Part shown: piece by piece, positions 10,555-60,540 of the stretch
Numbering within the stretch: position 1 is the stretch's first letter
Layout: each line of letters starts with the position of its first letter
NCBI GenBank assembly: GCA_043814315.1
Contig: JBDRKE010000005.1
Span: 28,220 to 92,219, forward strand
Source: Candidatus Omnitrophota bacterium
Lineage (GTDB): Bacteria; Omnitrophota; Gorgyraeia; Gygaellales; Profunditerraquicolaceae
DNA: 64,000 nt
Direction: 5' to 3'
Program-made: the position numbers and the translations under genes
The notes under the pieces: model-generated
The model's database searches: none
What the model was told of the DNA's origin: nothing
The model's input: only the letters and a program-made list of their open reading frames with translations

Positions 10555-10643
10555 AATAAATCCAAATATCAAAGCACAAAATTCAAAATAACCACAAAAT
10601 CCAAAATCCAAAACAGGAAATCTTTTGTTTTGAAATTTGAATT
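10555..10643. repeat. CAAAAT/CCAAAAT-type intergenic repeat element (family A), partial copy
   Basis: tcaaagcacaaaattcaaaataaccacaaaatccaaaatccaaaa...ttttgaaatttgaatttta, imperfect inverted arms. Confidence 0.5.
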
Positions 10644-12482
10644 TTATTCCACCGTTACTGACTTAGCCAAATTACGCGGCTGGTCCACATCACAGCCTCG
10701 TTTTACGGCGATATGGTAGGCCAAGAGCTGCAGGGGCAGCACAACTGTCAAAGGAGAAAAGAACTCATCTATTTTGGGTATATAGATAACCTCGGGCGTC
10801 AATTCTTTTATGGTCTTATCGCCCTCGTTGGCGATAGCGATGATCTTGCCCCGGCGGCTATGAATCTCCTGGATATTAGAAATCATCTTTTCGTAAATCC
10901 TGGATTCTACGGCAATGCACACCACGGCCCGGTATTCATCGATAAGGGCGATAGGCCCGTGCTTCATCTCTCCGGCGGCATAACCCTCGGCGGGGATATA
11001 GGAAATCTCTTTGAGTTTCAACGCCCCCTCTAACGCCGAGGGGTAATTGACATTCCTTCCTAAGAACAGAAATGAACCGAAGTGCGAATGCCGATGGGCC
11101 AGCCTTGCGATAGCGCCTTGCCCCTTTAAGATCTCCTCCTGCAACTTAGGAATCTTTCTTAATTCCCTGATGTATTTGCTTATTTTATCCTGGGGCAAGG
11201 CCTTTTTTATGCCGCTTAAATAAAACGCAAAGATGTAAAGCGCAATAAGCTGGGCGGTATAAGCCTTGGTGGAGGCCACGCCGATTTCAGGGCCTGCGTG
11301 CGTGTAGATGATACCGTCGGATTCCCTTGTAAGGGTGGAGCCCAGGACATTGCAGATGGAAAGTATGGGCGCCCCGCGCTTCTTGGCCTCCCTAACCCCG
11401 GCCAGGGTATCTGCTGTCTCTCCGGACTGGCTGATGGCAATCACCAGGGTGTCTTTATCAATTAAAAGGTCGCGGTATCTAAATTCGCTTGAGACCTCAA
11501 CCGCTGTTGGTATAGCACAGATGGATTCCAAAATATATTTTCCCACTAATCCTGCGTGATAAGCGGTGCCGCAGGCCACAATAGAGATATTTTTTATATC
11601 CTTGAGCCTGCTTTCAGGGATATGCTGCTCTTCAAAGGCTATTGCATGAGTATCTTTTTGTATCCTTTGGCGTAAGAGGTTTTCTATGATGGCGGGCTGC
11701 TCATTGATCTCCTTAAGCATAAAGTGCTTGTAGCCCTGTTTCTGGGCTGAGGCAATATCCCAATGAATGCGCGTGCTCTTTTTCTGCAGCTGCTTGCCAC
11801 CCAGATCGCTGATTTTAACGCCACCGCGCGTTAAAACAACCATTTCGCATTCATCCAAGAATATAATGTCCTTGGTGCATTCTAAAATGGCAGGAACGTC
11901 TGAGGCAATGAAATTTTCTCCTTTTCCCAGGCCGACAATGAGAGGGCTGCCTAATCGGGCGCCCACGAGTTTATCCGGTTCTCTTTTGGAGATAACCCCT
12001 ATAGCAAAGGAGCCTTCTAATTTAGAAACCGCCTTTCTAACTGCTTCTTCTAAACTGCAATTCTTAAAAAACTTCTCAATAAGATGCACAATAACCTCAG
12101 TATCAGTTTGACTGACAAATTTATGGCCTTCTTTAATCAGGCCCTCTTTCAACTTAGCGTAATTCTCGATGATTCCGTTGTGCACAACCGCGATTTCGCC
12201 TTTACAATCAAGGTGAGGGTGGGCATTTATTTGATTAGGAGCTCCGTGTGTAGCCCATCTATTATGTGAAATCCCTAATCTTCCTACAAGGGGGTTTTTC
12301 TCTAAGATATGCTCTAGGTCTTTTATTTTCCCCGGAAGCTTACGGACTGAAAGCGCGTTTTTATTTGCTGACAGAACACACATTCCGCTAGAATCATAAC
12401 CGCGATACTCCAGGCGCCTGAGCCCATTTAAAAGAATGGGCTGCGCTTCCTTCTCGCCAATATAACCAATTATTCCGCACAT
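10644..12482 (-). CDS. glmS: Glutamine--fructose-6-phosphate aminotransferase
   Basis: MCGIIGYIG N-terminal nucleophile Cys, two SIS domains, 612 aa. Confidence 0.95.
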   Translation of the reverse strand: MCGIIGYIGEKEAQPILLNGLRRLEYRGYDSSGMCVLSANKNALSVRKLPGKIKDLEHILEKNPLVGRLGISHNRWATHGAPNQINAHPHLDCKGEIAVVHNGIIENYAKLKEGLIKEGHKFVSQTDTEVIVHLIEKFFKNCSLEEAVRKAVSKLEGSFAIGVISKREPDKLVGARLGSPLIVGLGKGENFIASDVPAILECTKDIIFLDECEMVVLTRGGVKISDLGGKQLQKKSTRIHWDIASAQKQGYKHFMLKEINEQPAIIENLLRQRIQKDTHAIAFEEQHIPESRLKDIKNISIVACGTAYHAGLVGKYILESICAIPTAVEVSSEFRYRDLLIDKDTLVIAISQSGETADTLAGVREAKKRGAPILSICNVLGSTLTRESDGIIYTHAGPEIGVASTKAYTAQLIALYIFAFYLSGIKKALPQDKISKYIRELRKIPKLQEEILKGQGAIARLAHRHSHFGSFLFLGRNVNYPSALEGALKLKEISYIPAEGYAAGEMKHGPIALIDEYRAVVCIAVESRIYEKMISNIQEIHSRRGKIIAIANEGDKTIKELTPEVIYIPKIDEFFSPLTVVLPLQLLAYHIAVKRGCDVDQPRNLAKSVTVE

Positions 12483-12523
12483 AGCTTCATCATGGTAAGG
12501 TTTACCCCGGAAAGGACGAGGGC

Positions 12524-14091: not shown

Positions 14092-17000
14092 TTATTCTTC
14101 TTCTATAATGACGGGGGCCACGCAGGAAACCCGGTCTTTAGGCTGCAACCTGATAAGGCGCACCCCCTGCGCAGACCTGCCGGTGGTGCGGATATCTTTT
14201 ATGGCGCAGCGCAGGAAAATGCCGTTTTGCGTAATGGCCATCAACTCGTCATTATCGCCAACCGACTTAAGGCTGATCGCTTCACCATTTTTCGCGGTCA
14301 CCTTCATATTAATAACGCCCTTGCCTCCCCTGCTGGTGAGACGGTACTCTTTGATGGGCGAGCGCTTGGCAAAACCTAATTCTGTCACGGTTAAAACGGT
14401 AGAGTCTTTTTGGGGGACCACCATACCGATCACTTCATCCTTCTTGGCCAAAGAAATGGCGCGCACGCCGTGCGCCCCCCTTCCCATGTCCCGCACCTTG
14501 CTTTCTGAGAATCTCAAGGCCTTGCCCTGACGCGTGCCAATGAGCAGCTCCTGTTTTCCGTCGGTCAACTCGACACCGATCAACTCGTCATTCTTATCCA
14601 AAGTGATTCCGATAATGCCGGCCTTGCGCGGGTTGCCGTAGGCGTCCAGTTTCGTCTTTTTGATCTGGCCGAGTTTCGTCACCATCACCAGGTACTTGTC
14701 CTCGGAAAATTCCTTTACGGGGATAGTCTTGCTTATTTTAACGCCTGGCTCCATCTGCACCAGATTCACAATGGCCTTTCCTTTAGTGGTGCGGCTAGAC
14801 TGGGGGATCTCGTAAACCTTAAGCCAGTGCACCTGGCCTTTGTCCGTAAAAATCAAAAGGTAGTCTCGGGTTGAGGCGATAAACAGATGCTCCACGAAAT
14901 CCTCTTCTTTAACCTCCGCGCCCGTCACGCCTGATCCGCCGCGCCTCTGTTTGCGGTAGGCACTGACCGGCAAACGCTTGATGTAGCCACCGTGGCTGAT
15001 GGTGACAACCACGTCCTCTTCGGCGATTAAATCTTCTATCTCCAGCTCTTCTACCTCAGCCACGATATCGGTCCTGCGATCATCTGCGTATTGCTTTTTT
15101 AGGCCCTCCAGTTCCTCCTTGATGATGCCTTCGATTTTTTTCTCGGAGGCAAGGATCGCCTTGCAGAGCTCTATCTTCTTAAGGAGCTCGGCGTATTCAG
15201 CGTCAATCTTGTCCCTCTCAAGGGCGGTTAGGCGCTGCAGCTGCATCTCCAAGATCGCCTGCGCCTGAATCTCGGAAAGGCCAAACTCCTTCATCAAGCG
15301 CTCTTTAGCCGCTTCAACGCTCTTAGAGGCTTTAATCACCTTAATGATCCTATCAATAAATTTCAAGGCGATCTTTAAGCCCTCTAAAATATGGGCGCGC
15401 TTTAAGGCCTTGTCCAGCTCAAACTGGGTGCGCCTGCGGACAATCACCTTGCGATGCTCAACATAAGCATCCAGCACCTGCTTTAAATTCAAAACCCGCG
15501 GCCGGTTTTCCACCAGAGCGAGCATGATCACGCCAAACGTTGTTTTAAGCTGCGTGTGCTTAAAGAGTTGGTTCAAGACAATCTGCGATTCGGCATCCCG
15601 CTTAAGCTCGACGACCACGCGCATACCTTCCTTGTCAGACTCATCTCGAATATCAGAAATGCCCTCGATCTTCTTCTCATCCACCAGGCCTGCTATGGCC
15701 TCGATGAGGCCTGCCTTTTGAACCTGATAAGGGATCTCTGTAATCACGATAAAGTCCTTGCCGTTTTTCTGATGCTCAACGGTTGCCCGGGCACGCACCG
15801 TAAGCTTGCCCTTGCCTGTGGTGTAGGCATCCTTGATGCCGGCTTTCCCGCAGATGACTCCCCCCGTCGGAAAATCAGGGCCCTTGATATAGCGCATCAG
15901 GTCTTTGAGTTCTGCCTCAGGATGGTCCAGCAGATAAATGATGGCATCCGCCACTTCCTTCAAGTTGTGCGGCGGGATATTAGTAGCCATGCCTACGGCA
16001 ATACCGCTTGAGCCGTTCACTAATAAATTGGGAAGAGCCGCAGGCAATAAAAGGGGTTCTTGCAGGGAGGCATCAAAGTTCGGGCCGAAATTTACAGTAT
16101 CCTTGTCAATATCAGCCAGCATCTCGTCGGAGATTGCAGCGAGCCGCGCCTCCGTGTTATGGCTTATAAAGCCATTTGACACAAAGGAGTGACAAGGACT
16201 ATCAACTTTTATTGAATAAACCCTCTGCTTGCCAGAATCTTCAACAAAAGCAACTCTATCAAATATGTACTTATTTTCCCTCAAGGTCTCAAATAACCCT
16301 AGGTCTTCTTTATCAAGAGCTCTGGTTAGTCTCGGCCAATACTTCTCTATTTTTACATATCTGTCGATATTGTGTTTCTTAAGCCATTCTATGTGTCCAC
16401 GGTATTTTTTGTTGCACCTACTACTTTTTCTGCGGATATAATCAGCTATAAAGGGTATAAAATCCGTTTTCGACATATTCCATCCATCGCTGTTGCGATT
16501 ACAGATATTTGTTATCTTCTGGCGGCTTTCCTTTGTGCTAAAATTTATTTCATTTTTGAATAGCCCGAGGTTGACGTGCCCCCTAATATACAATCTAAAA
16601 TAGCGTTTCTGTTTATGAAACCTGAGCCAAGAATCAATCCCAAATCTTAATAGTAAAATCTGTAATTCTTGGAGCAATTTTTCACTGGTTGATATAAAAC
16701 TAATATCGGGATTTCTTTTACCAATACAAACGCTGCCATCTCCTTCCGCATATCCTTTTATAAATGAGCTTACCGATTTTCGTGAAGATTTAAAAATGAT
16801 AGGGGGCACCTTTTTCTTTTGAGCACGAGACTGTAGCAGACCGATATTTTTTAAAAATTCCCTAACTTGGCTTGAATGAATTTCCAAGTAAACACAGTTC
16901 TTTTTACCGAAACCAGGCGGCTTCCTCACGAATTCATGCAGTCGGCAATCAGGAAATACTTTTTTAAAGCTTAGCTTAAATTTATCTATAAACTCTTTAT

Positions 17001-17844
17001 CGCCATTGCAGAAATCAATGTGCTTTTTGCTTATAGACCCCTCCGCAATTATTGCCCCCAAAATAAAAGCGAGGTCTTTATTCATGGCACGAGGGAGCCT
17101 GTGCTTCTGCGCCCGATTTTTAATCTCTGGATAATATTGTTTTAGCGAAAGCTCTTCTTTAGGAAATAATACACTGCTCCTACTTATCACAGTACAGTCA
17201 CCAATTTTTACCTGGCTTAATAATTTCCAGACAAATTTTGGCTTGAAACTATTTCTCTCCCATACAAGAATGGGATGATTAAGGCTGCCGCATAAACTAA
17301 AACCTCTAAAAGTGGTAATTTTCTTAGTTGGGTGCTCTCCAGAATCAAACCACCTTGATACATGATTTATTTTATTATTTAGAGAGAGCGTGTGAAAATT
17401 GGCTTTTGAATGATGGGATATATCATTTATTCTTTGCAGCCCTTGCTCCGTAATAATGAAAGTGTCCCCCGAGACGCAGTAGCGCATCGCGGCAGCGGCG
17501 TCCCCGTCGATTGATCCAAAATTTCCTTGGCCCTCTACCAGTGGATAACGCAAAGAAAAATCCTGCGCCATGCGCACTAAGGTATCATAGACTGCTACAT
17601 CTCCGTGAGGGTGATATCGGCCAAGCGTATCTCCAACGATGCGCGCGCATTTTTTATAAGGCTTATCATGCTCGAGATTCAAATCTTTCATCGCAAATAA
17701 GATTCTGCGATGCACCGGCTTTAAGCCGTCGCGCACATCCGGAAGGGCGCGGCCTACAATTACGCTCATGGCGTAATTTAGATATGAGTCCTTTACCTCT
17801 TCTTCAATATAAACAGGAATTATTTTTTCGTTGCGGGTATACAT
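14092..17844 (-). CDS. gyrA: DNA gyrase subunit A containing a 441-aa intein
   Basis: N-terminus has the AAAMRY active-site Tyr followed directly by Cys. The extein resumes as ...HN|[13 protein letters not shown]. Extein length 809 aa. Confidence 0.95.
16156..17478 (-). mobile_element. GyrA intein with LAGLIDADG homing endonuclease domain
   Basis: Starts with Cys immediately after the catalytic Tyr (MRY|C) and ends in HN before Thr. Two LAGLIDADG-like motifs: [15 protein letters not shown] and [12 protein letters not shown]. Confidence 0.85.
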
Positions 17845-17879
17845 TTCTTGCCTCGTAAGTGGTTCTGAAAAATCTAAAT

Positions 17880-18010
17880 ACTACCAATACTACCCAACAA
17901 ATCCCTGCCTTGCCGGCAGGCAGCCAAAATCCCAAATCCAAAAAGTAAGTTTGGGATTTGGAAACTGGGGATTGTTTTTGGTTTTGGATTTTGACATTTG
18001 AATTTTAATA
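17880..18010. repeat. Family A repeat element between gyrA and gyrB
   Basis: GC palindrome ctgccttgccggcaggcag followed by ccaaaatcccaaatccaaaa...tttgggatttgg...ttttggttttggattttg inverted arms. Confidence 0.6.
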
Positions 18011-22047
<4,037 letters not shown>

Positions 22048-23271: not shown

Positions 23272-24615
23272 TTATTGTTTAATAATTTGAATAACATGCT
23301 CTACTTTTTGTTTTAAGGCCTCATTCGTATTCAAGCCCCCCTTGATTTTATTATAAGAGTGTAAGACGGTCGTGTGATCTTTTCCCCCAAAATGGTCTCC
23401 TATCTCAGGCAAAGACAGCTCTGTCAACTCTCTGCTTAAATACATCGCAACCTGGCGCGGGAGAACAATGTTTTTGTGGCGGCGCTTGGTCTTAAGCTCA
23501 TGCAGTGATACCCCGAATTCTTCAGACACGCAACGCTGTATAAAATCTACCGTGATAAGCCTCTTGGGTTCTTTTAACAAGTCCTTTAAAACCTCTTTGG
23601 CCAGGCCCAACGTGATGGGCTCTTCTTCTAGTAAAGAATAGGCGATGGTGCGGATCAGCGCCCCCTCTAACTCCCTAACATTTGTTTTAATGAGTTGGGC
23701 GATGAAAAAAATCACTTCATCCGGAACGGTTACAGGCTCTCTTTCAATCTTTTTCTTTAAAATAGCCACGCGCGTTTCTAAATCAGGCGGCTGGATATCT
23801 GTGGTGAGCCCCCAACCAAAGCGCGAGACAAGCCTATCTTGCAAATTGGCAATTTCCTTAGGGGGTCGGTCAGAGGAAAAAACAATCTGTTTATGGGAGT
23901 CGTAAAGCGTATTAAAGGTATGGAAGAACTCTTCTTGGGTTGACTCTTTCCCTGCGATGAAATGGATATCGTCTATCATCAGGACATCCACATTTCTGTA
24001 TTTTTGCCGGAAGCGAGAAGTCGAATGATGCTGGATGGCGTCGATGAGTTCATTAGTAAATTTTTCCGACGATAGGTAGCAAATTTTAGGGTTGCCCGTA
24101 GATTTGCTGAGTATAAGGTTACAGATAGCCTGGATAAGATGGGTCTTGCCCAGGCCCACCCCCCCGTAAATAAATAAAGGATTGTACGCTTTAGCAGGAG
24201 AATCGGCAACCGCTAAAGAGTAAGCGTGAGCATGCCGGTTAGACGAACCCACAACAAAATTTTCGAACGTATAGCGCGCATTCAGGCTGGAGGTGTCGTG
24301 ATGCCCGGCAGCCTTGATGGTCAGGCCCGCCGGATTTAATGGGTCGCGCACTTCCCGTTTCTCTTTGATGCCGGATTCAAAAGATACGGCGATTTCTTGC
24401 TGGGAAGATACATGGCTCAGCGCCTGCTGGATGATGAGGCTATAATGTTTCTCGACCCACTCTCGAAAGAAATCATCCGGGGCCTCTAGAACTAAACCGT
24501 TCTTATTTTTTGTGCGCGGCGTTAAGGGCAAAATCCAGGTTTCAAAAACCGTATCCCCTAACCGTTCTTTTAAGAACCCATGTGCCTGCTGCCAGGCTTG
24601 GAGAATATCAGCCAT
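23272..24615 (-). CDS. dnaA: Chromosomal replication initiator DnaA
   Basis: AAA+ domain with GGVGLGKTHL Walker A, C-terminal DNA-binding domain, 447 aa. Confidence 0.95.
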   Translation of the reverse strand: MADILQAWQQAHGFLKERLGDTVFETWILPLTPRTKNKNGLVLEAPDDFFREWVEKHYSLIIQQALSHVSSQQEIAVSFESGIKEKREVRDPLNPAGLTIKAAGHHDTSSLNARYTFENFVVGSSNRHAHAYSLAVADSPAKAYNPLFIYGGVGLGKTHLIQAICNLILSKSTGNPKICYLSSEKFTNELIDAIQHHSTSRFRQKYRNVDVLMIDDIHFIAGKESTQEEFFHTFNTLYDSHKQIVFSSDRPPKEIANLQDRLVSRFGWGLTTDIQPPDLETRVAILKKKIEREPVTVPDEVIFFIAQLIKTNVRELEGALIRTIAYSLLEEEPITLGLAKEVLKDLLKEPKRLITVDFIQRCVSEEFGVSLHELKTKRRHKNIVLPRQVAMYLSRELTELSLPEIGDHFGGKDHTTVLHSYNKIKGGLNTNEALKQKVEHVIQIIKQ

Positions 24616-25045
24616 CTCAGGTTATGTACAGAATTAACAGCTTATTCACAACTTGTATAAATCTGTGGAAAACCAAAAACCATGCAAAAGCCAGTTTTAT
24701 TATACCCGCGCTAAGATAACCTGCAAGCCTCCCAAGAAATATACTTTAAAATACCATGGAATTTTAAACGAGGCAAGTAAAAAACATGTGTCCCTTTTTC
24801 ATGAGACGTTTAGCTATTATACATTAAATTTTTTTCCCGTCAACAAAAAAGGTAAATCATGAAAAAGCCTGGCCTGTTAACAATGCGCGGCCTCTTGTTT
24901 ATCTTGACCGCGACTTCTTTATTGATATAATAGGGCCTTCTACAACACGCAGCTTGGCCGGCTGGCTTTAACATACGAATGTGTTGACTTCAGGCGGCTT
25001 TGTGTTATAATTGGAAAACACATTTAAACCTATTGGGTAAAGCCG
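24616..25045. other. Putative oriC region between dnaA and rpmH
   Basis: 430 bp non-coding and AT-rich. DnaA-box-like nonamers are present (TTATTCACA at 24640, TGTGGAAAA, TGTGTTATAA), each with 1-2 mismatches to TTATCCACA. Location is the canonical rpmH-dnaA junction. Confidence 0.45.
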
Positions 25046-25177
25046 ATGAAAAAAAATTTAAATACTCCTACAAATATCGTCGGGAAACGTAGACACGGCT
25101 TTCGTAAGAAGATGGCCACTTCAGCCGGCCGCCGAACCCTGTCGCGTCGCCGCCGTAAGGGAAGAAAAAGACTTTAG
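25046..25177 (+). CDS. rpmH: 50S ribosomal protein L34
   Basis: [43 protein letters not shown]; 43 aa. Not in the ORF track because it is under 60 aa. Confidence 0.9.
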
Positions 25178-25183
25178 TGTTTT

Positions 25184-25399: not shown

Positions 25400-25403
25400 A
25401 AGT

Positions 25404-45259: not shown

Positions 45260-45461
45260 CCTGCCACACATATCATTTCAAGATCGGGTCTTGAAACAAT
45301 CCCCCAGACCGTTTCTAAATAACCTCTTGTAAAATAAGGCCTTTTGGCAGAAGTGTCCCGTACCACAAATCTCCCGTTAGATTTTAGTTTACTAACGGAG
45401 AAATTGATGGTTCGGCTTCGCTCACCATCAATTTCAAACGGCTTCTATCGGTAGAAATTGA

Positions 45462-45573: not shown

Positions 45574-48500
45574 ATGCTCACGATACTTTATATAGCTTTG
45601 TTGGCAGCTATCAGCATGATAGCTTACGCTATCTACGGGATGGCAACGGCAGATTCTGCGGCCCGACCCAGGCCAAGAAGAGTGCCGGAAGGGAAAAATC
45701 AAAATTACGGGAAAGAAAAGACCGAAAAACTACAGATGCAAGTGTCAGCCCTGCAGGGAGAACTGGAAAAGGTAAAAACGGATTATGCCCATAGCCGGCA
45801 AGAAGTTGAGGTTTCCGGAAAATCCCAGGCGCAGTTAGAGGAGGAGCTCGTCCGTAGGCAGGATTGGGTGGTTAAAGCGGAAGAGGCATTGAATAAAACC
45901 AAGGAAGAGCATGGTGGCCTGCAGAAGAAATTTGCGGAAAAAGAAAAAGAGCTGGAAAAGGAGTTTGCCAAGAATGTCAATAGCAGCAAGGAAATTCGGG
46001 AATTAAACGAGAGGCTGGCCTTGCAAGAAGCAGCTATCAAGGACAGCTCGGATAAGATTGAGGCCCAGAAACATAAAATCGAGAAAGTTAATAAAGAACT
46101 TAAAAGCCAGCAGGAAACAATTGAGGAATTCAAAAAGAAAGAACAGATAAGCGAATGGATTCCTAAGCAGGAATTCAATAAGCTTAATGAAGAATACACG
46201 GAACTGGAAAAGGAATTAGAGACTAAGGAAGAGCGGTCAAGGATTTTGATGCAGGAGTTAGGCCATCTGAAGAGCCAGGTGGCCCAGAAGGAGAAAGCCG
46301 TCCCAGTCCTCCAGGAACAGAAAGAGGTGCCTGAAGAAGAGGAGCCCATCAAAGAAGAAGAACCTCCTAAAGAGCAGTTACCGCAAGAGCCCTCTAAGGA
46401 AGAGCCCCCTACTAAGCCCGAAGCACCCTTTGCGCCAGAAGAACCCTCCAAGCCCGAAGAGCCCCTAAAGCCCGAGGAGCCCCTAAAGCCCGAGGAGCCC
46501 CCTAAGTCCGAAGAAATGCAGCTCGGAGAAATGCAGAAGAAGGCTCCTGAGGTTAAGCCAGAGGAGATCCCTCGTGAAGCAGCCAAGAGAGCAAAGAAAA
46601 AAGAGCCAACGCCAGTTCCCCGCACAGAGTTAAAGATGGTCAGAAACATCGGGATTATGGCGCACATCGATGCCGGAAAGACGACTCTGACGGAGAGGAT
46701 TTTGTTTTATACGGGCAAGTCTTATAAAATCGGGGAGGTCCACGAAGGCGCTACACAGATGGATTGGATGAAGCAGGAGCGGGAACGAGGCATTACTATT
46801 ACATCGGCAGCAACGACATGCTTCTGGAAGGACCACAGGATCAATCTTATTGACACCCCTGGCCACGTTGATTTTACGGTTGAGGTGGAAAGGAGCCTTA
46901 GGGTTCTTGATGGCGCGGTGGCTGTTTTTTGCGCGGTAGGAGGGGTTGAGCCTCAATCGGAAACAGTGTGGCATCAATCCGATAAATACAACGTTCCCAA
47001 GATTGCCTTCGTGAACAAGATGGACCGGACAGGTGCTGACTTTCTTAGTGTGTTGAAGGGGATTGAAGAGATCCTGGGTGCCAATGTTGTTGCGCTAGTC
47101 ATTCCGATTGGCAGCGAAGACAGCTTTCGCGGGGTGGTGGATTTGATGGAGATGAAGTCCTATCTCTATCAGGAAGAGTCTCAGGGCAAGGATTTTCTTA
47201 TTGAGGATATCCCCGAAGAGCTTAAGGAAGATGCGCTCAAGTATCGCCATCTCTTAGTGGAGAAAATCTCAGCGCTTGACGAAACTTTAACCAAAAAGTA
47301 CCTGGAGGCTCCGGAGCAAATAACCCGGGAAGAACTCGCGCAGGTTTTGCGTAAGGGCACCATTTCTAATAAAATCGTGCCTCTTCTTTGCGGATCCGCT
47401 TTTAAAAACAAAGGGGTCCAGAAGCTCCTTGATGCGATAACGCTTTACCTGCCTTCTCCGTCGGATACCCCTGAGGTCAAGGGGCACAGCCTTCTTGATG
47501 CCGAAAAAACCGTCCTAAGAAAACCTGATTATCAAGAGCCATTAACGGGCCTTGCCTTTAAGATTCAGGCTGATCCGCATATGGGCAAGCTTGTGTATGT
47601 GAGGATTTATTCCGGCATCTTAGAGACGGGTTCCTATGTGCTTAATGCCACCAAGAACAAAAAGGAAAGAATCGGAAGGATTGTGCAGATGCATGCCAAC
47701 CAGCGGGAGAATGTCGAGTGCGCCTTTGCCGGCGATATCGTAGCCGTGGTAGGCCTTTCGCATACAACCACAGGAGATACCCTGTGCGATAAAGAAGAGC
47801 CCGTGGTCTTGGAGACAATAGAGTTTCCTGTGCCTGTGGTGTCGTTGAGCATCGCCCCAAAGAGCCGCTCGGATCAGGATAAGCTTGGAAAGGGTCTGTC
47901 CAAACTTATGGAGGAGGACCCCACCTTTTTAGTGCAAAGCGACGAAGAAACGAAAGAAACGGTCCTCACGGGCATGGGAGAGCTGCACCTTGAGATCATC
48001 GTGGATAGGCTTAAGGAGGAGTTTGACGTAGAGGCTGTGGTCGGTCAGCCAAAAGTCGCTTACAGGGAAACGATTCTGAAATCATCACACGCCGAAGGAA
48101 AATACATTAAGCAGTCCGGCGGCAGGGGTCAGTATGGCCATGTGGTCATGGAGATTTCGCCGGCTGCGGCTGGAGAGGGCTTCGAGTTTATTGACAGCAT
48201 TAAGGGAGGCGCTATCCCTAAATCCTTTATCCCTGCCGTAGAAAAGGGCGTGATAGAAGCTATGAAGAAAGGGGTCTATGCAGGATTTCCTGTCGTGGAT
48301 GTCAAGGTCAATCTTGTGGATGGATCTTTTCACGAGGTCGATTCGTCTGAACTGGCCTTTAGAATAGCGGCCATTCTGGGATTTAAACAGGCCTTTATGC
48401 AGGCAGAGCCGGCCCTGCTTGAACCCTATATGTCCCTTGAGGCCACCACGCCCGAAGAGTATGTGAATGCCGTCGTGGGATATTTAGGCTCCCGTCGGGG

Positions 48501-48726
48501 GAAAATCTTAAACATGGACAGCAAGGGAAAACAGAAAATAATCTCTGCGGAAGTTCCTCTCTCTGAAATGTTTGGTTATGCGACGGCCCTGCGCTCTTTA
48601 AGCAGCGGCCGTTGCAATGCCTCTATGGAGTTCCTCAGATACGCACATGTCCCCGGTGAAATCGCGCAAAAAGTCAAAGAGGAGCAGAAAAAGAAGGAAG
48701 GGGAGAAGGCGAAAGCGAAATCCTAA
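45574..48726 (+). CDS. Elongation factor G paralog with a 350-aa N-terminal extension (TM helix, coiled coil, Pro/Glu-rich linker)
   Basis: The C-terminal 700 aa is a complete EF-G: G domain [26 protein letters not shown]; G' insert; domain [14 protein letters not shown]; domain V. The N-terminus [24 protein letters not shown] is a TM helix, followed by about 230 aa of heptad-like E/K/L/Q-rich sequence and [25 protein letters not shown] single frame with no stop. An internal Met ([12 protein letters not shown], nt 46627) would give a canonical 700-aa EF-G on its own. Confidence 0.8.
46435..46515 (+). repeat. 18-nt tandem repeat (CCCGARGAGCCCCTAAAG, three copies) encoding a PEEPLK linker
   Basis: cccgaagagcccctaaag cccgaggagcccctaaag cccgaggagccccctaag read directly. 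Confidence 0.8.
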
Positions 48727-52756: not shown

Positions 52757-52838
52757 TGTTCGTTGCGCGTCGCGTACAGCGCATTGCGCGCAATACGCAA
52801 TACGCAATACGCGGTACGCATGACGTAAAAATAGCGCT

Positions 52839-53624
52839 ATGAAAATATTGTTTATCGGAGACATCGTGGGCAGTCCCGGCCGAGAGGCGATAGCCAGGAG
52901 CCTAGCGGAATTAAAGAAAGAATACAAATTGCAGTTTATCATCGCCAATGCCGAGAACGCCGCCGGCGGTTCCGGCATTACGCTTAAAGTTGCGGATGAA
53001 CTGTTTGGGCATGGAATCGATTGCTTGACCTCCGGAGACCATATCTGGAAAAAAAGGGATATTTTTGGGCTTATTAATCAAGAGGAGCGAATCTTGAGGC
53101 CTTTGAATTTTCCTTTCGGAGCACCCGGCAAAGGCGCAAGCTTATTTAAAACAAAGGAAGGGCTCTCTGTCGGGGTCATCAATGTTTGTGGTAGAGTGTT
53201 CATGGAGCCCTTGGAATGTCCTTTTAGGACAAGCCGGCAAGCGGTAGAAGAGTTATCTAAGCAGACGAGCGTCATTGTGGTGGATGTGCACGCAGAGGCC
53301 ACCTCAGAAAAGATAGCCCTGGGGTGGTATCTCGACGGAAAGGTCTCTGCGGTTTTGGGAACGCATACACACATACAAACGGCAGACGAGAGGATTTTGC
53401 CCCAAGGAACAGCCTATGTAACGGATGTGGGCATGACCGGGCCTTATGATTCTGTGATCGGCAGAAGAATCGAAGATGTGTTGGAAAGATTTGTCACGTC
53501 AATCCCCACCCGGCTCGAAGTCGCTAGCGATAATATCCAACTGCATGCGGTGGTTTTAGATATCGATGAAAACACAGGGAAGGCTAGATCCATAGAGAGG
53601 ATTCAGAAAAAGCTCCTAGGTTAA
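52839..53624 (+). CDS. ymdB: YmdB-family metallophosphoesterase (2',3'-cyclic-nucleotide 2'-phosphodiesterase, TIGR00282-like)
   Basis: MKILFIGDIVGSPGR...IANAENAAGG; conserved rny-ymdB synteny. Confidence 0.85.
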   Translation: MKILFIGDIVGSPGREAIARSLAELKKEYKLQFIIANAENAAGGSGITLKVADELFGHGIDCLTSGDHIWKKRDIFGLINQEERILRPLNFPFGAPGKGASLFKTKEGLSVGVINVCGRVFMEPLECPFRTSRQAVEELSKQTSVIVVDVHAEATSEKIALGWYLDGKVSAVLGTHTHIQTADERILPQGTAYVTDVGMTGPYDSVIGRRIEDVLERFVTSIPTRLEVASDNIQLHAVVLDIDENTGKARSIERIQKKLLG

Positions 53625-53625
53625 T

Positions 53626-53760
53626 GTCAAATGTCAAAATCCAAAATTCAAAATAAATCCCAAATCCAAAATCCAAAAAGAAGAATTCTCCATTTTGCAT
53701 GCTGCGTTTTGTGTTTATCTTGGATTTTGTGCTTTGTGCTTTGTCATCCAACTTTTGCCC
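53626..53760. repeat. Family A repeat element; its right arm overlaps the start of the next CDS
   Basis: tgtcaaatgtcaaaatccaaaattcaaaataaatcccaaatccaaaatccaaaa...ttggattttgtgctttgtgctttgtcat. Confidence 0.7.
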
Positions 53761-55583
53761 AGCAGGATGAAGAGTTGGAATTTAATTTGGATGTGACGGC
53801 AAGCACAACTCCCCTCCCGAAGATATTTCAGCCTAATATAGACTTAAGCGGCCGCGGATTCCATCGTGACCCCACCTGGCCGCAGACAGTAGCCGCTAAA
53901 GAGTCATTAGGCATTTGGCGCAGGGATTTGGGTTTTGGGGGCATGTATCGGTTGCAGTATAATCTTTGGGAGATCGGTCAGCTTTCCGAAGAGAAAGAGC
54001 TGCAGGAATCACTCCTGGCTCATTATGAAGAGATTATTAAGAATATCAGCGACGCCGGGGGCACTGTGATGCTGAATCTGTTTGGTACACCGGCCAACTT
54101 TGGCAGGGTTCTGGACAAGAAAAGCCCTCCGCGGGACTTAAAGGCCTTTAAGGCTCTGGTCAAAAGCATCATCCGAGATTTAAGTTGCAATAAAAGATAC
54201 AATATTTGGTATGAGGTTTGGACGGCGCCGGACTTGGACGACTTCTATATCGGCAGGGAACAGGAATACCTGAATTTATATCGGGTGGTTGCAGAAAGCG
54301 CCAGGGAATTACGACAGGAAACCAAGATCCATATCCCCGTGGGAGCCCCAAGCGTCAGCTGGTGGTTTCAGAATCTTAAAGGTAACACGATTGTCACCCC
54401 GGAAAGAAGCCTCATCTACACCCTCATTAAATTCTGCTACCGCTATCGCCTGCCTTTGGATTTTATCAGCTGGCATGGTTTCTCTACGGATCCCGGCGTA
54501 GAAAAAGAAAGCACCGTTTATAAAAAGACGGCGGTCACCCTTATAAGGGACTGGCTCTCTTATTTTGATTTTGACAAAAACACGCCCCTGATCGTTGACG
54601 AATGGAATTTTGACAGTGACGCCAATGTGTTGGCGGCACGGGGGGAAAAATCTTTTATCGCCGCCAGCTACATCCCCAGCCGCATAAAGAACATGCAGGC
54701 CGCCGGCATCGATTATCAAATCTACTATTGCCTTGAAGATTTTCGGCGCAACAAAGAAGGAGTGGTAAGAAACATTGGCATTTTTTCTTTTGATCCGGAA
54801 GAATCCGAATACAAAGGCGCGCGTAAGGCCACCTACAATGTGCTGAGAATGCTCTCGGCCCTTGGCCGTGATGAGTTTTTGCACAAAAATAACGATGATT
54901 TTGCAGGGGCGATAGCCACGAAAACCAGTGACGGCTATGCCCTGCTTTTTTATAATTATATTGATCCGCAGGTGGTCACCAACTACTTCACCAAAAACAT
55001 CGCCGGGCTTAGAGCCAAGGAAAGAAAAATTATTTTAACTCTCATAAGCTCCGAAAAGCTAGAAAAAATCATGCTGCATCAATTGGAGGTTTCTAAGTTA
55101 CGCGCGAGTAACAGGATCAAGAATTTCTTAAAGAAAGCGCAGGAATTAAATGATAAAGCCAAAAAATATGAATATAATGCGCGCCGCATCAAAATAAACA
55201 TTAAGAACCTAAAGCCTTCCAAGCCCGCCGACCGTAAAAACGGCAATGCGCAAAGGCCCAAAGATACACAAACGTATTATCTCTATGAAAAATACACGGT
55301 GGACGCTTCCTGCAGCTTCAACTGTGAATTTGTGCCCGTGGAAACAAAAGAGATTGAACCCGCAACCGAACCTTACCAGGAGACACTCGCCCTGAATCCT
55401 TATTCTGTGCACTTGATTCTGTTGAAGAAGAAGGTCAGAGAAATTAAGGAACCTGAAAAAGAACCTGAAAGCATACTTCCTTCACCTGATACCGCGCAAA
55501 TTCCGATAGAGAAAGAAGAAGCTCCCAAAGAGACCCCTAAGGAAGCTCCCAAAGAGACCCCTAGACAAGAAGACTCAAAGTGA
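53631..55583 (+). CDS. Secreted TIM-barrel glycoside-hydrolase-like protein with low-complexity C-terminal tail
   Basis: Signal peptide (ILHFACCVLCLSWILCFVLCHPTFA|QQ) is encoded partly by the repeat element. WYEVWTAPD and LIVDEWNF resemble GH clan-A acid/base and nucleophile strands, but NEP is replaced by TAP. The C-terminus has APKETPKEAPKETP tandem repeats (24-nt x2 at 55519-55566). Confidence 0.35.
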   Translation: MSKSKIQNKSQIQNPKRRILHFACCVLCLSWILCFVLCHPTFAQQDEELEFNLDVTASTTPLPKIFQPNIDLSGRGFHRDPTWPQTVAAKESLGIWRRDLGFGGMYRLQYNLWEIGQLSEEKELQESLLAHYEEIIKNISDAGGTVMLNLFGTPANFGRVLDKKSPPRDLKAFKALVKSIIRDLSCNKRYNIWYEVWTAPDLDDFYIGREQEYLNLYRVVAESARELRQETKIHIPVGAPSVSWWFQNLKGNTIVTPERSLIYTLIKFCYRYRLPLDFISWHGFSTDPGVEKESTVYKKTAVTLIRDWLSYFDFDKNTPLIVDEWNFDSDANVLAARGEKSFIAASYIPSRIKNMQAAGIDYQIYYCLEDFRRNKEGVVRNIGIFSFDPEESEYKGARKATYNVLRMLSALGRDEFLHKNNDDFAGAIATKTSDGYALLFYNYIDPQVVTNYFTKNIAGLRAKERKIILTLISSEKLEKIMLHQLEVSKLRASNRIKNFLKKAQELNDKAKKYEYNARRIKINIKNLKPSKPADRKNGNAQRPKDTQTYYLYEKYTVDASCSFNCEFVPVETKEIEPATEPYQETLALNPYSVHLILLKKKVREIKEPEKEPESILPSPDTAQIPIEKEEAPKETPKEAPKETPRQEDSK

Positions 55584-57119: not shown

Positions 57120-59017
57120 TGTTATTAGAGAAAATCCATTCTCCGCAGGATTTAAAGAAACTTTCTCCTGATAAGCTGCCGAGGCTTGCGCAGGAAATAA
57201 GGCAGAGGATTATTGAGGTTGTTGCATCTTGCGGCGGGCACCTCGCTTCGAGCCTGGGTGCTGTCGAGCTCATTTTAGCCTTACACTATTGTCTGGATGC
57301 CAGGCGTGACAAAATCATCTTTGATGTTGGGCATCAGGCCTATGCCCACAAGATACTGACCGGCAGAAACAAGGATTTTCATACGCTGCGTCAATATCAG
57401 GGCCTCAGCGGTTTTCCTTCCAAAGAGGAATCCGTTTGCGATATATTTACGACAGGCCACAGTTCCAGCGCCGTATCGCTGGCACTAGGTTTAGCCTGCG
57501 CAAGGGATTTCTTACCCCAAGAGCCATCTTTTAAAGTGGTAGCCGTTATCGGTGACGGTTCATTAAGCGGGGGGCTGTGTTTTGAGGGGCTGAATAATGC
57601 CGGCCACCTCAAAAAAGATATTTTAGTTATTTTAAATACCAATGAATTAAGCATTGCGCCGAATACGGGCGCCATAAGCACTTACCTTAATAAGATTATA
57701 TCGTTGCCTATATACAATCGCTTCAAAGGCTCTTTAGAAAGTTTTGTAAAATCGCGCATGCCCAAGGGGAGCCGTATCATCAAAATAGCCAATAAGTTCG
57801 AAGAGGGGCTTAAAGGGTTATTCATTCCCGGCATGCTTTTTGAAGAGTTGGGATTTCGGTATTTTGGCCCTTTCGACGGACACGATGTAAGCCTTCTGAT
57901 TAAGACATTGAAAAACATAAACAACCTAAGGGGCCCGCTCTTGCTGCATGTGGTTACCAAAAAAGGGAAAGGTTATGTTCCTGCAGAGCTCGATCCCGTC
58001 CGTTTTCACGGCACAGGGCCTTTTGATATCCTGTCAGGACAAAGGCAAGGCACAGCGTTTAAAACCTATACGGAGGTTTTCAGCGAAAAGCTATTAGATT
58101 TAGCCGCTCGCGATAAAAGAATCGTCGCTATCACAGCTGCCATGCCGGAAGGCACAGGTTTGGATAAATTTCGCGATCGTTTCCCGCAGAGGTTTTTTGA
58201 CGTAGGCATTGCAGAAACTCATGCCGTCTGCTTTTCCGCAGGCCTTGCTAAAGCAGGACTCAAACCGGTCGTGGCCATATATTCCACTTTTTTGCAAAGG
58301 GCTTATGATCAGATTATTGAAGATATCGCGTTGCAGAATTTACCCGTCGTCTTTATGCTTGACCGCTCAGGCATCGTGGGAGAGGATGGAGTAACCCACC
58401 AGGGCATTTTTGACATCGGATACTTAAGAAATATTCCTCATTTAGTGGTGATGGCACCCAAGGATGGGGGGGAGTTAGAAGCGATGCTTGAATTCGCTAT
58501 TGGCTTAGATAGGCCTTGCGTTATCAGGTACCCCAGGGATAAAATCCCAAATCCAATGGTTCGACTCCGTTCTCCATTGGCACCGAGCGAATCCGAGGTG
58601 CCCAAATCCCAAATTCCAAATGAGAAAATAGAACTAGGAAAGGCCGAGGTATTAATGGAAGGAAAAGACTTTATGCTTTTAACGCTGGGAAGCATGGTTT
58701 GCCCGGGTTTTGAGGCCATGGAATTGTTGCGCAAGGAGGGCCTATCCGGAACTTTGATAAATGCCCGCTTTGTAAAACCCTTGGACACTGAGCTATTTAA
58801 ACAGATAGCTTCAAAGGCCAAATTTATTTTTTCGGTTGAAGAGGGAATCGTAGAAGGAGGTTTTGGCAGCGCGGTAGCCGAGGCTCTGGATGGCGTTGTG
58901 ACCAAGATAGGGTTGCCTTGCGCCTTTATCCCGCACGGAAAAAGAGCTTTAATGTTGGATAAATACAGATTAACGGCCCAAGGGATTGCTGATAAAATCA
59001 AATCCGTATTGCGTTAA
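57119..59017 (+). CDS. dxs: 1-deoxy-D-xylulose-5-phosphate synthase with an in-frame repeat insertion near the C-terminal domain
   Basis: TPP-binding GDG motif and transketolase-like domains; 632 aa. Between RYPRD and EKIELGKAEV lies an extra KIPNPMVRLRSPLAPSESEVPKSQIPN. Confidence 0.9.
   Translation: MLLEKIHSPQDLKKLSPDKLPRLAQEIRQRIIEVVASCGGHLASSLGAVELILALHYCLDARRDKIIFDVGHQAYAHKILTGRNKDFHTLRQYQGLSGFPSKEESVCDIFTTGHSSSAVSLALGLACARDFLPQEPSFKVVAVIGDGSLSGGLCFEGLNNAGHLKKDILVILNTNELSIAPNTGAISTYLNKIISLPIYNRFKGSLESFVKSRMPKGSRIIKIANKFEEGLKGLFIPGMLFEELGFRYFGPFDGHDVSLLIKTLKNINNLRGPLLLHVVTKKGKGYVPAELDPVRFHGTGPFDILSGQRQGTAFKTYTEVFSEKLLDLAARDKRIVAITAAMPEGTGLDKFRDRFPQRFFDVGIAETHAVCFSAGLAKAGLKPVVAIYSTFLQRAYDQIIEDIALQNLPVVFMLDRSGIVGEDGVTHQGIFDIGYLRNIPHLVVMAPKDGGELEAMLEFAIGLDRPCVIRYPRDKIPNPMVRLRSPLAPSESEVPKSQIPNEKIELGKAEVLMEGKDFMLLTLGSMVCPGFEAMELLRKEGLSGTLINARFVKPLDTELFKQIASKAKFIFSVEEGIVEGGFGSAVAEALDGVVTKIGLPCAFIPHGKRALMLDKYRLTAQGIADKIKSVLR
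58540..58635 (+). repeat. Family A-related repeat inserted in-frame in dxs
   Basis: aaaatcccaaatcc + palindrome ccaatggttcgactccgttctccattgg + cccaaatcccaaattccaaat. Confidence 0.6.
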
Positions 59018-59029: not shown

Positions 59030-59233
59030 ATGGCCAGGATTAAGATCGATCAAGACAAATGCAAAGGATGCCTCTTGTGTATAAAGTTTTGTCCCAAAGG
59101 CTCCCTGAGCCTAGACAATAAATTAAACCGATGGGGGGTAAAGCCGGTTAAATCTCAGAAGAGCAAGGCTTGCATAGGCTGTAGTATCTGTGCGATTGTT
59201 TGTCCGGATTGCTGTATCGAAGTGTATAAATAA
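59030..59233 (+). CDS. porD: 2x[4Fe-4S] ferredoxin, delta subunit of a 2-oxoacid:ferredoxin oxidoreductase
   Basis: 67 aa with CKGCLLCIKFCP and CIGCSICAIVCP motifs, immediately upstream of the alpha subunit. Confidence 0.8.
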   Translation: MARIKIDQDKCKGCLLCIKFCPKGSLSLDNKLNRWGVKPVKSQKSKACIGCSICAIVCPDCCIEVYK

Positions 59234-59325
59234 AATTCAAATGACAAAATCCAAAATTCAAAACAAAACCTTTTTAGTTTTGGATTTTGTGCTTTGTGCT
59301 TTGTCATTTGAATTTATGCCTTTTG
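59234..59325. repeat. Family A repeat element
   Basis: aaattcaaatgacaaaatccaaaattcaaaacaaaacc...ttttggattttgtgctttgtgctttgtcatttgaattt, near-perfect long hairpin. Confidence 0.75.
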
Positions 59326-59329
59326 GATT

Positions 59330-60412
59330 ATGTCTCAAAAAAAAGTCTTGATGACAGGTAATGAGGCCATGGCCGAAGGCGCCATACAGGCAGGATGTTC
59401 GTTTTATGCGGGTTACCCGATTACTCCGCAGAATGAGATACCTGCTTATATGGCACGCCGCATGCCTGAAGCAGGAGGCGTATTTATTCAGGCGGAATCA
59501 GAACTGGCAGCCGTCAATATGGTGTTTGGAGCAGCAGCCGCAGGGGCTCGCGCTTTGACCAGTTCCTCCAGCCCCGGGATCAGCCTTAAGCAGGAGGGAA
59601 TTTCTTATTTGGCTGGGGCCCAATTGCCGGCTGTGATTATTAATGTGATGCGCGGCGGCCCGGGATTGGGCAACATCTGGCCAGCGCAATCAGATTATTT
59701 TCAGGCCACGCGTAGCGGCGGCCACGGAGATTACCATTCTATAGTGCTTGCGCCTTCCTCTGTTCAGGAGTCTTATGATCTGGCGGGCCGTGCGTTTGAC
59801 CTTGCCGAGAGGTATCGTACCCCGGTTATCATTCTGGGGGACGGAACACTCGGGCAGATGATGGAACCCCTCGTTATCAAATCCAAAATTCCTTCCTGCC
59901 CCGAGGGCAGGAAGGATCCAAAATCCAAAATAAAGAAACCCTGGGCGCTGACGGGCTGTCAAAGAAGAAAGCCGAATGTCGTAAAATCTTTTTATCTGAA
60001 GGAAGGAGATTTAGAAAAGTTTAACCTCACTTTACAAAAGAAATACAATTCCATTAAACAAAAAGTTCAGTGTTATGAGGGGTCATTTTTAGATAAGGCC
60101 CGGGTGGTTGTTGTGGCTTATGGAACGATGAGCCGGATTGCCAAAAGCGCGGTCAGTCAACTGCGCAAAAACGGCAAAAGAATCGGCTTGATACGGCCCG
60201 TCACCCTTTGGCCGTTTCCTCAACAGGCCTTCCAGAGATTCAGCCGACCGGAGAGAAAAGTTAAGTTTCTGGTTGTGGAGATGTCTTACGGCCAGATGTT
60301 AGAAGATGTGAAATTGGCGCTGGATGGCCGATGCCCCGTTGGCTTTCTGGGCCGTTCCGGCGGAGGAGTACCGACGGAGGAAGAGATTATATCCAAGATA
60401 AGTGAACTATAG
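59330..60412 (+). CDS. porA: 2-oxoacid:ferredoxin oxidoreductase alpha subunit (POR/KOR/VOR family) with an in-frame repeat insertion
   Basis: MSQKKVLMTGNEAMAEGAIQAGCSFYAGYPITPQNEI matches the N-terminus of the family. An extra IKSKIPSCPEGRKDPKSKIKKP segment sits near residue 185. Confidence 0.85.
   Translation: MSQKKVLMTGNEAMAEGAIQAGCSFYAGYPITPQNEIPAYMARRMPEAGGVFIQAESELAAVNMVFGAAAAGARALTSSSSPGISLKQEGISYLAGAQLPAVIINVMRGGPGLGNIWPAQSDYFQATRSGGHGDYHSIVLAPSSVQESYDLAGRAFDLAERYRTPVIILGDGTLGQMMEPLVIKSKIPSCPEGRKDPKSKIKKPWALTGCQRRKPNVVKSFYLKEGDLEKFNLTLQKKYNSIKQKVQCYEGSFLDKARVVVVAYGTMSRIAKSAVSQLRKNGKRIGLIRPVTLWPFPQQAFQRFSRPERKVKFLVVEMSYGQMLEDVKLALDGRCPVGFLGRSGGGVPTEEEIISKISEL
59878..59936 (+). repeat. 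Family A-related repeat inserted in-frame in porA
   Basis: aaatccaaaattcc + palindrome ttcctgccccgagggcaggaagg + atccaaaatccaaaat. Confidence 0.6.
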
Positions 60413-60540
60413 TGTTAAATTCCAATTTCCAAATCCCAATATACAAACAAATCACAATACACAAATGTCTTTGTGATTTGTGTATTCGGTATTGTGGCTT
60501 GTTTGTAATTTGTGTATTGCGATTTGTGATTTAAAATATC
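60413..60540. repeat. Variant repeat element (CACAAATCACAATACACAAA hairpin)
   Basis: ccaatttccaaatcccaat...caaatcacaatacacaaatg-tctt-tgtgatttgtgtattcggtattgtg...tgtgtattgcgatttgtgatt. Confidence 0.6.

Follow-up and report, generated by a model that had tools for sequence, protein, structure and literature searches.

Dispersed hairpin repeats of 7-base units in the spacers and coding genes of a Candidatus Omnitrophota bacterium

In cyanobacteria, the repeats known as STRR and SDR are dominated by tandem units of 7 nucleotides (nt), lie in spacers and sometimes in functional genes, and carry palindromes of ~20-27 nt nested in the heptamer arrays. The STRR heptamer repeats are reportedly those of Mazel (1990), and the small dispersed repeats (SDR) of Nostoc are said to be those of Elhai et al. 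(2008, Genome Res 18:1484). Here we describe short repeats in a stretch of 64,000 nt from a Candidatus Omnitrophota bacterium (contig JBDRKE010000005.1, positions 28,220 to 92,219; hereafter "the window", counted from its first letter), in which seven intergenic spacers hold members of one family of hairpin DNA repeats of about 90-165 bases, built of 7-base units. The Omnitrophota are an uncultured, widespread phylum with small cells and compact genomes.

Several other kinds of bacterial repeat invite comparison. The RPE of Rickettsia are palindromic elements of ~100-150 bp that lie in frame in unrelated housekeeping genes, are translated as extra loops, and have no known transposase (Ogata et al. 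2000, via PMC10969869); they are found in Rickettsia only, and each family encodes a conserved peptide (PMC10969869). REP sequences are extragenic, GC-rich stem-loops of 20-40 nt with a conserved GTAG and are associated with RAYT transposases (PMC3116915). The TAACTGA repeats of Beggiatoaceae, Cyanobacteria, and Bacteroidetes are direct repeats of one unit, located just upstream of start codons and almost never inverted; the same study reports a general excess of heptanucleotide LSSR and explains it by slippage (PMC4679880).

Each of the seven elements, E1 to E7, is a long imperfect palindrome that runs from an A-rich left arm through a short loop to a T-rich right arm, the arms being short tandem arrays of 7-nt units (or 8-nt units in a second family described below). 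The 5' arms of all seven are arrays of the units CAAAATC, CCCAAAT, GCACAAA, and GTCAAAT, and the 3' arms are arrays of their complements. The bounds are given by a conserved inverted terminus of ~20 nt, AATTTCAAATGTCAAAATCC on the left and ...TTTGACATTTGACATT on the right. Tandem Repeats Finder reported period-7 arrays at every listed site, and a repeat finder linked the seven to one another as both direct and inverted repeats. Within the window, AAATCCAAAATCCAAAA had 22 matches with at most 3 mismatches, compared with 1.00 +/- 0.98 in shuffles, and the terminal motif TAAAATTCAAATGACAAAAT, which stands at both ends of E4 and E6, had 6 matches where 0.01 were expected. An earlier reading of the window, made from the sequence only, had proposed a dispersed hairpin family with conserved arm motifs at these seven sites; this enrichment shows the family to be real, and the motifs lie within a few bases of where that reading had put them. 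The refined limits are as follows (no strand is assigned to these elements; z compares the folding energy with that of dinucleotide shuffles):

E1, 10555-10646: fills the entire spacer between the glmS stop codon TAA (10644-10646, minus strand) and the rsmI-like start at 10554; z -2.48.
E2, 17898-18007: between the gyrB stop (18011-18013) and the gyrA start (17844), with a nested 20-nt palindrome, CCTGCCTTGCCGGCAGGCAG, at 17904-17923; z -1.26.
E3, 35222-35365: thrS/infC spacer, with the A-rich arm at 35225-35268, the T-rich arm at 35283-35312, and a nested GC-rich stem-loop at 35315-35348, after which the terminal TTGGAATTTA picks up again at 35356-35365; z -5.35.
E4, 36606-36726: begins in the rplT stop TAA (36605-36607) and ends 14 nt before the likely trkA ATG at 36741; z -5.26.
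E5, 53623-53785: begins in the ymdB stop TAA (53622-53624), with a GH39-like gene downstream; its right terminus is divided by a hairpin insert of ~30 nt (53748-53778) into TTTGTCAT before and TTGGAATTTAA after; z -1.66.
E6, 59232-59316: the most regular copy, between the stop TAA (59231-59233) of a porD-like small 4Fe-4S open reading frame (ORF) and porA (59330); z -6.72.
E7, 60416-60535: a variant with units CACAAAT / CAATACA, between the porA stop (60410-12) and porB (60544); z -3.23.

Folding upheld the long imperfect stem-loops that had been proposed, strongly for E3, E4, E6, and E7 and moderately for E1. It was weak for E2 and E5, because nested inserts or a long loop break up the stem. 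An ungapped hairpin scan was too strict, catching E4, E6, and E7 in part only, and folding was used instead.

All seven elements lie between co-directional housekeeping genes (glmS/rsmI-like, gyrB/gyrA, thrS/infC, rplT/trkA, ymdB/GH39-like, small ferredoxin ORF/porA, and porA/porB). The sequence-only reading had them between convergent or co-directional genes; the latter holds for every copy, but the window offers no convergent case. Five of the seven begin within or directly after the upstream TAA (at or 1-2 nt from the stop), and E4 and E6 end ~14 nt short of the next start codon. E2 separates gyrB from gyrA, and both E6 and E7 are found within the porD-porA-porB operon. About one third of the longer spacers in the window are occupied by one type of periodic hairpin DNA. 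Three mechanical ORF calls begin inside elements, namely those of rsmI (9901-10611, in E1), trkA (36710-37384, in E4), and the GH39-like gene (53631-55583, in E5); these genes more likely begin at 10554, 36741, and about 53787-53793, respectively. The elements can thus mislead start-codon calling.

At least nine more sites were found in the window beyond these seven, three of them outside the genes with coding copies and the others inside five genes, so that the density of about one per 8 kb first suggested is an underestimate:

52757-52835, no strand assigned: intergenic hairpin upstream of ymdB, built of a different heptamer, CGCAATA x4.6.
33333-33367, no strand assigned: minimal hairpin of 35 nt consisting of the terminal motif only, CCATTTGAATTTTTC / GAAAAATTCAAATGG.
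39697-39767, plus strand: lone T-rich arm-like array of units TTGGGAT / TTGGAAA, with no partner arm and no fold (z 0.0).
40640-40765, plus strand: hairpin insert of 8-nt units in pheS, in frame, amino acids (aa) 161-202, with a nested insert of ~50 nt, TGGTTCGACAGGCTCACC...CCGAGCGAAGTCGAGGG, at 40696-40745.
41508-41592, plus strand: hairpin of 8-nt units in pheT, in frame, aa 71-99, with a AGTTAGCC-type left arm and a AACCGGCT-type right arm; z -4.30.
41784-41822, plus strand: left arm of a split pair in pheT, aa 163-175.
41935-41970, plus strand: right arm of that pair, aa 213-225, complementary to 41784-41822, with 112 nt of conserved coding sequence in between.
62081-62174, plus strand: hairpin of 8-nt units in gltX, in frame, aa 92-123, in a variable loop.
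58542-58625, plus strand: AAATCCC heptamer array in dxs, in frame, aa 475-503, divided by a nested 44-nt insert at 58558-58601.
59877-59933, plus strand: CCAAAAT heptamer array in porA, in frame, aa 183-202, divided by a nested palindrome, CTTCCTGCCCCGAGGGCAGGAAGG, at 59892-59915; z -5.47.

The array at 39697-39767 encodes the hydrophobic N-terminal segment WDLEIGIYLVLWVLFVVFGF of ORF 39693-40199, which had no Pfam match; this segment may be a signal or transmembrane sequence derived from the repeat.

To see whether the family extends beyond this genome is to ask where its terminus recurs, and the same 19-nt terminus, AWTTCAAATGWCAAAATYC, was present in at least 120 metagenome contigs from many groundwater, sediment, and lake samples, so that the elements are not unique to the window. 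Most of these matches share the architecture of the window copies. Among copies anchored on the 19-mer, the base at position -1 is A in 102 of 117 and the sequence farther upstream is random, which gives the element a sharp end; on the downstream side, copies of CAAA are spaced 7 nt apart over 50 nt or more (consensus AATTTCAAATGTCAAAATCCAAATGYCAAAT...). The 52 full-length copies with a clear right arm end in ...TTTGACATT and have a median length of 121 nt (range 45-216). Flanks differ in nearly all metagenome copies, which therefore represent different loci. Two or more arm matches were found on 49 of the 120 listed contigs, with up to 5 on contigs of 9.5-12.5 kb, and only 12 of the 120 had a gene in common with the Omnitrophota loci, at 27-61% identity. 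In one metagenome copy (L082:2130-2190; L numbers denote fetched loci), the shared terminus is followed by inner arms that contain Nostoc-like AGTCATT / AATGACT heptamers, and unit types can therefore mix within one element. A phage vector is not supported: the terminus had 13 exact matches in viral contigs, used as a negative control, and none of the 13 showed the hairpin architecture, as expected of chance matches.

The PheS relatives of the window (one genome per species) all belong to Candidatus Omnitrophota, the best being 72-73% identical, although the records of some are titled "uncultured Planctomycetales" or plain "bacterium". Genomes other than that of the window were sampled around pheS only. 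A left-arm nhmmer profile, the kind of tool that the sequence-only reading had proposed for a genome-wide count, recovered the window copies but next to nothing in 80 of these Omnitrophota loci, where it gave weak matches in L047, L075, and L032. Since the profile was nearly blank in these loci, this sequence family is lineage-restricted, and the idea that the CAAATGTCAAA family is present throughout the Omnitrophota was ruled out; the architecture alone is widespread. A very similar element was found in the rplT-trkA spacer of L078, the sister of the window in a PheS+PheT tree, and an E7-like element in the same spacer of L047.

How widespread the architecture is was surveyed in the window and the 80 loci (1.33 Mb in all), with first-order Markov simulations as the baseline. 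Tandem arrays of period 7 numbered 176, compared with 28.8 in the simulations (6-fold); period 14 was also in excess (48 vs 6.6), and period 8 was mildly up (63 vs 40.2). The units vary greatly between genomes (AGTTTAC, AGCGTAT/CTATCCG, GTCACAA, AAAATCA, CTAAACT), often with a complementary array nearby. In many lineages an array lies in frame in the pheS loop, such as AAACTCC x4.7 (L070, L019), ACGCACA x4.4 (L067), and GGTGCGC.../AAAACCG x5 (L001). The rplT-trkA spacer, which holds E4 in the window, measures from a few to ~40 nt in most of the ~45 relatives listed; among these, ~12 lineages have a hairpin there, each with its own heptamers.

The coding copies follow the same design. A second family, with 8-nt units of AACCGGCAAA on one arm and GTTAGCCGGTT on the other, has 11 matches in the window (0.07 expected) and is wholly intragenic there, in pheS, pheT, and gltX. 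Every copy in pheS, pheT, gltX, dxs, and porA keeps the reading frame and contains no stop codon. The site in PheS (between FDTFYL and LLRSHTS) has 42 residues here and typically 5 in relatives, and Dxs is longer than its E. coli counterpart by 17 residues at the insert; the loop with the gltX array is matched in Thermotoga GluRS by one similar in length and unrelated in sequence. The sense strands fold less stably than the antisense strands: -27.7 vs -49.7 kcal/mol for pheT, -24.4 vs -40.5 for gltX, and -15.3 vs -22.5 for dxs. A perfect GTTAGCCA array would bring an in-frame TAG in one unit out of three, and the units that have changed are just these (e.g., AGT ATG in pheT), which accounts for the weaker sense folding and argues that the coding copies are selected for translation, not bypass. 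Judged from these sequences, the copies are probably translated, in tolerant loops of the proteins. A replicative or mutational strand bias was rejected as the source of the weak sense folding by reasoning, as deamination of the exposed strand would put G-T pairs in the sense strand, and the observed pattern is the reverse.

The 8-nt family is limited in the window to genes for aminoacyl-tRNA synthetases (40640-40765, 41508-41592, 41935-41970, and 62081-62174). Its copies share a reading, STGKPANG in pheS, LTGKPANR in pheT, and KTGKPANQ in gltX; a further peptide encoded by coding copies is SEVPKSQIPNEK. The common TGKPAN reading could be chance or a class-specific effect, and the restriction to synthetases leaves room for a role specific to this gene class, at the level of RNA or peptide.

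Many of the arrays are themselves interrupted. The short GC palindrome that the sequence-only reading had placed beside the elements is real, but sits inside the unit array, which picks up again on the far side; this was seen in E2 (17904-17923), porA (59892-59915), E3 (35315-35348), E5 (53748-53778), pheS (40696-40745), and dxs (58558-58601). Two of these inserts, in pheS and dxs, are related, as both read TGGTTCGAC...CCGAGCGAA..CGAGG, and their stems differ in a compensatory manner (TCCC/GGGA vs CACC/GGTG). Their core also occurs between two GCGGTTT arrays in L019 (14865-14890) and in an element in the rplT spacer of L023. More broadly, a small palindromic element GGTTCGAC..GCTCACC.. / ..CCGAGCGAAGNCGAGGG.. 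was noted at 40696-40745, at 58558-58601, at ~45398-45432, and in L019, L023, L112, and L199. Another palindrome of 19-20 nt, CCTGCCTRCCGGYAGGCAGG, has ~30 copies in all fetched DNA, nearly all at unit boundaries of heptamer arrays that differ widely in unit sequence. If this reading is right, three layers are nested here: arrays of 7/8-nt units, hairpins of 120 nt, and palindromes of 20-50 nt.

A distinct arrangement was found in pheT, where two mutually complementary inserts (aa 163-175 and 213-225) bracket a segment of 24 residues that is conserved in all relatives (IIVRRAK..E.I.TIDG...L....LVIA). Both sites are jointly occupied in L078, L017, L052, L010, and L060 as well, giving six lineages including the window. 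The units are in part specific to a lineage; those on the two sides are GGTGAGCC and CTCACCGG/CACACCCG in L052, CGCCGGT and ACAGGCG in L010, and AGTTCTAN and NAGAACCA in L017. The four clearest cases gave duplexes of the two arms that were better than those with shuffled partners (z -2.3 to -4.7); the effect was weaker in L078 (z -1.6). In a cross-lineage matrix, the cognate right arm was the best partner of the left arm in L017, L052, L010, and L060; the window and L078 have a unit type in common, and their arms pair across the two. In an approximate neighbour-joining tree of PheS+PheT, the lineages with split pairs fall in at least four separate places, each with neighbors that lack the inserts.

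Because the arms bracket pre-existing sequence, one palindromic insertion cannot have made them. Either one arm was copied in inverted form from the other, by fold-back template switching, or pairing is selected. It is conceivable, though we consider it quite improbable, that the arms are written or maintained by a dedicated templated process, be it a hairpin-directed copying enzyme or selection for long-range pairing. Such a process would set complementary short-unit arrays on both sides of host sequence, as the pheT case suggests.

On balance, we lean towards reading these repeats as selfish, non-autonomous, hairpin-forming DNA of a kind common in Candidatus Omnitrophota. Discrete copies would be dispersed to new loci by some enzyme, without target-site duplication or strand preference, as argued by empty orthologous sites and by termini that stay sharp and conserved across more than 100 unrelated loci. 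At each locus, the arrays would then grow, shrink, and homogenize unit by unit through replication slippage, which is suggested by the periodic mismatches and by arms that co-vary between lineages, and intrastrand template switching (fold-back copying) would keep the arms complementary. The period-7 excess, the mismatches at unit period, the lineage-specific units at orthologous sites, and the split pheT arms all argue for such local remodeling. Copies survive only where the harm is small, as is shown by their positions just after stop codons in co-directional or convergent spacers or in frame in variable surface loops; in the latter, they would be translated, and in-frame stops have been mutated away. 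The arrays are in turn targets of still smaller GC-rich palindromes at unit boundaries, as the pattern described above shows. Any benefit to the host, such as protection of mRNA 3' ends as in REP, would be secondary; the reading neither needs a role at the RNA level nor speaks against one.

Several findings weigh against this reading. No insertion or excision event was observed, and the empty orthologous sites could be losses. That five of the seven window copies begin right at a TAA could mean a function at gene ends and not mere tolerance. The 80 other Omnitrophota loci hold almost no members of the CAAATGTCAAA sequence family. No ORF resembling IS200 was found in 2.09 Mb of fetched loci, in what was a weak test, and the ORFs between neighboring elements are ordinary genes, with no autonomous element or transposase among them. 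Finally, the split pheT arms are incompatible with a single palindromic insertion, so that some elements arise or are remodeled in place.

The elements could instead be functional intercistronic RNA hairpins, which would protect 3' ends, serve as sites of RNase processing, or terminate weakly, thereby tuning the relative expression of neighboring genes, as REP/BIME do in enterobacteria. The placement of all seven window copies between co-directional genes, five of them at the stop codon, speaks for such a role, as do the stable predicted stems (mean about -31 kcal/mol for about 122 nt) and the avoidance of divergent, promoter-bearing spacers by the anchored metagenome copies (convergent 11, divergent 4). 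Against it, the same copies show no bias in orientation relative to transcription (18 +E+ vs 19 -E-), and among 39 intergenic copies with assignable direction 22 fold more stably as sense RNA and 17 as antisense RNA (p = 0.26), so that the sense strand has no stability advantage and strand-specific selection on RNA is not supported. Nor is there a conserved requirement, as the same spacers measure a few to ~40 nt in most relatives listed, and in coding regions, which also hold related arrays, the structure of the sense strand is weakened. A search of Rfam 15 returned at gathering score 4 tRNAs and a 6S RNA in the window and no family match at the elements, and its permissive mode gave only matches far below threshold to plant miRNA precursor hairpins. 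We consider this explanation unlikely. Termination, one of the roles that the sequence-only reading had suggested, is also unlikely as the primary one: the stems are A/U-rich, a terminator consensus scan of 33-38 kb picked out neither E3 nor E4, and the genes on either side of E2, E6, and E7 encode subunits of one enzyme, those around E6 and E7 forming a single operon.

A purely local origin without mobility, in which short A/T-rich units grew in place by slippage and fold-back template switching because the lineage suppresses such events poorly, would account for the heptamer arrays of many unit sequences enriched across Omnitrophota, the different in-frame pheS-loop arrays in many lineages, the mismatches that repeat at unit period, and the split, co-varying pheT arms, which require local copying. 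It leaves unexplained, however, why more than 100 unrelated loci share a sharply bounded terminus and arm consensus that are identical over 19-40 nt, and why the same 20-nt palindrome, CCTGCCTRCCGGYAGGCAGG, lies within arrays of unrelated units; as a full account we find it doubtful. A further possibility is that the arrays are binding sites for a protein that reads ~7 nt of single-stranded nucleic acid (e.g., of the cold-shock-domain or S1 type), with the hairpin hiding or exposing the sites. The strict 7-nt periodicity and the conserved CAAA/TTTG core would suit this, and a like proposal has been published for the TAACTGA heptamers of Beggiatoaceae (PMC4679880). However, the units, some of them 8 nt long, range from AT-rich to GC-rich and are highly variable both inside one genome and among genomes, the copies have no positional tie to start codons, occur in either orientation, and in many cases lie within coding sequence, and we think this explanation very improbable.

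Of the three roles first suggested for the elements (terminators, RNA-processing sites, or MITE-like mobile DNA), the last comes closest. Like MITEs (Correia/NEMIS, ERIC, RUP; review PMC10969869), which are non-coding, 50-200 bp long, and present in many copies, have terminal inverted repeats, form RNA hairpins, and occasionally give in-frame fusions, the elements are short, non-coding, and dispersed, with at least seven copies in 64 kb; their sharp inverted ends, many unrelated loci, and empty orthologous spacers fit as well. Unlike MITEs, the entire element is self-complementary and periodic. Target-site duplications, which had been put forward as a check, were not found, as the flanks of the 52 full-length copies held no consistent direct repeat, and neither a partner transposase nor an insertion sequence with the same ends was found in the fetched loci, the transposase search being the weak one above. 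Pairs of inverted termini at long range enclose ordinary genes only.

The likeness to REP/BIME/REPIN lies in the position at gene 3' ends, the co-directional or convergent spacers, the lack of target-site duplication, the role as targets of further insertions, and the homogeneity within a genome combined with differences between genomes. Unlike REP in size and composition, however, the main elements are ~120 nt long, A/T-rich, periodic, and in part intragenic. The nested 20-nt palindrome CCTGCCTACCGGTAGGCAGG is the sole REP-like part, and the weak IS200-like query found no RAYT in the 64-kb window or in the fragments of other genomes. The coding copies recall RPE, being palindromes in frame in housekeeping genes, in loops that are shorter or different in homologs; they differ from RPE as described in being built of tandem 7/8-nt units that change between lineages, and the AT-rich family is mostly intergenic. 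With the TAACTGA repeats, the elements share short arrays of one heptamer, a mostly intergenic location near gene boundaries, and a scattered phylogeny, but here the arrays are paired into hairpins, follow stop codons, and use many units.

There is a strong likeness, by description, to STRR/SDR, with which the elements share tandem heptamers, sites both in spacers and within genes, and small nested palindromes. The Omnitrophota are not heterocystous cyanobacteria, however, and the units are CAAAATC, CAAATGT, and similar (STRR units being compared by description); two complementary arms, a conserved and sharply bounded terminus, and in-frame copies in essential protein genes set the elements apart as well. 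The unusual parts are the split, co-varying arms and the three-layer nesting. Full-text literature searches returned nothing on such repeats in Omnitrophota and no relevant paper with the element sequences.

If the favored reading is true, the phylum would harbor a repeat ecosystem parallel to cyanobacterial STRR/SDR and Rickettsia RPE, and a natural system for the spread of palindromic DNA without a recognizable transposase. It would also provide a window on how slippage and template switching shape genes and how proteins absorb loops encoded by repeats. The elements are useful as strain markers, and are a likely source of assembly breaks and wrong start-codon calls in metagenome-assembled genomes.

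Some further features of the window were noted. The sign of the GC skew changes near 25 kb, with genes on both sides pointing outward, the cumulative GC skew has its minimum at ~24600-25400, and an rpmH-like ORF can be read at 25046-25180, with minus-strand ORFs of 447 and 363 aa next to this region; the window therefore probably spans a replication origin, in the region of ~24600-25400. A minus-strand ORF at 1-8456, of at least 2818 codons, runs past the left edge of the window and represents a gene for a giant protein. The genes gyrA (14092-17844) and gyrB (18011-21763), on the minus strand, both encode 1250 aa and each contain an intein (Intein_splicing, with LAGLIDADG_3 in gyrA). The 6S RNA (Rfam RF00013, 67.3 bits) lies at 43634-43793 on the plus strand, in the spacer after pheT. 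An EF-G-like protein of 1050 aa (45574-48726, plus strand) has an N-terminal extension of ~350 residues ahead of its GTPase domain, in which an 18-nt (6-codon) tandem repeat, AAGCCCGAAGAACCCCTA, occurs x5.7 at 46414-46515. A near-perfect inverted repeat of 24 bp with a 4-nt loop, AAATGTTCCCCGTGAAAATATTCC / GGAACATTTTCACGGGGAACATTT, is located at 27166-27217, upstream of ORF 27239, and is not related to the heptamer family. Short tandem repeats were also seen at 17877-17894, adjoining E2 (AATACTACC x2), and at 63246-63278 (GGAGTCGCCACG x2.8), inside a stretch between long ORFs at 63168-63390.

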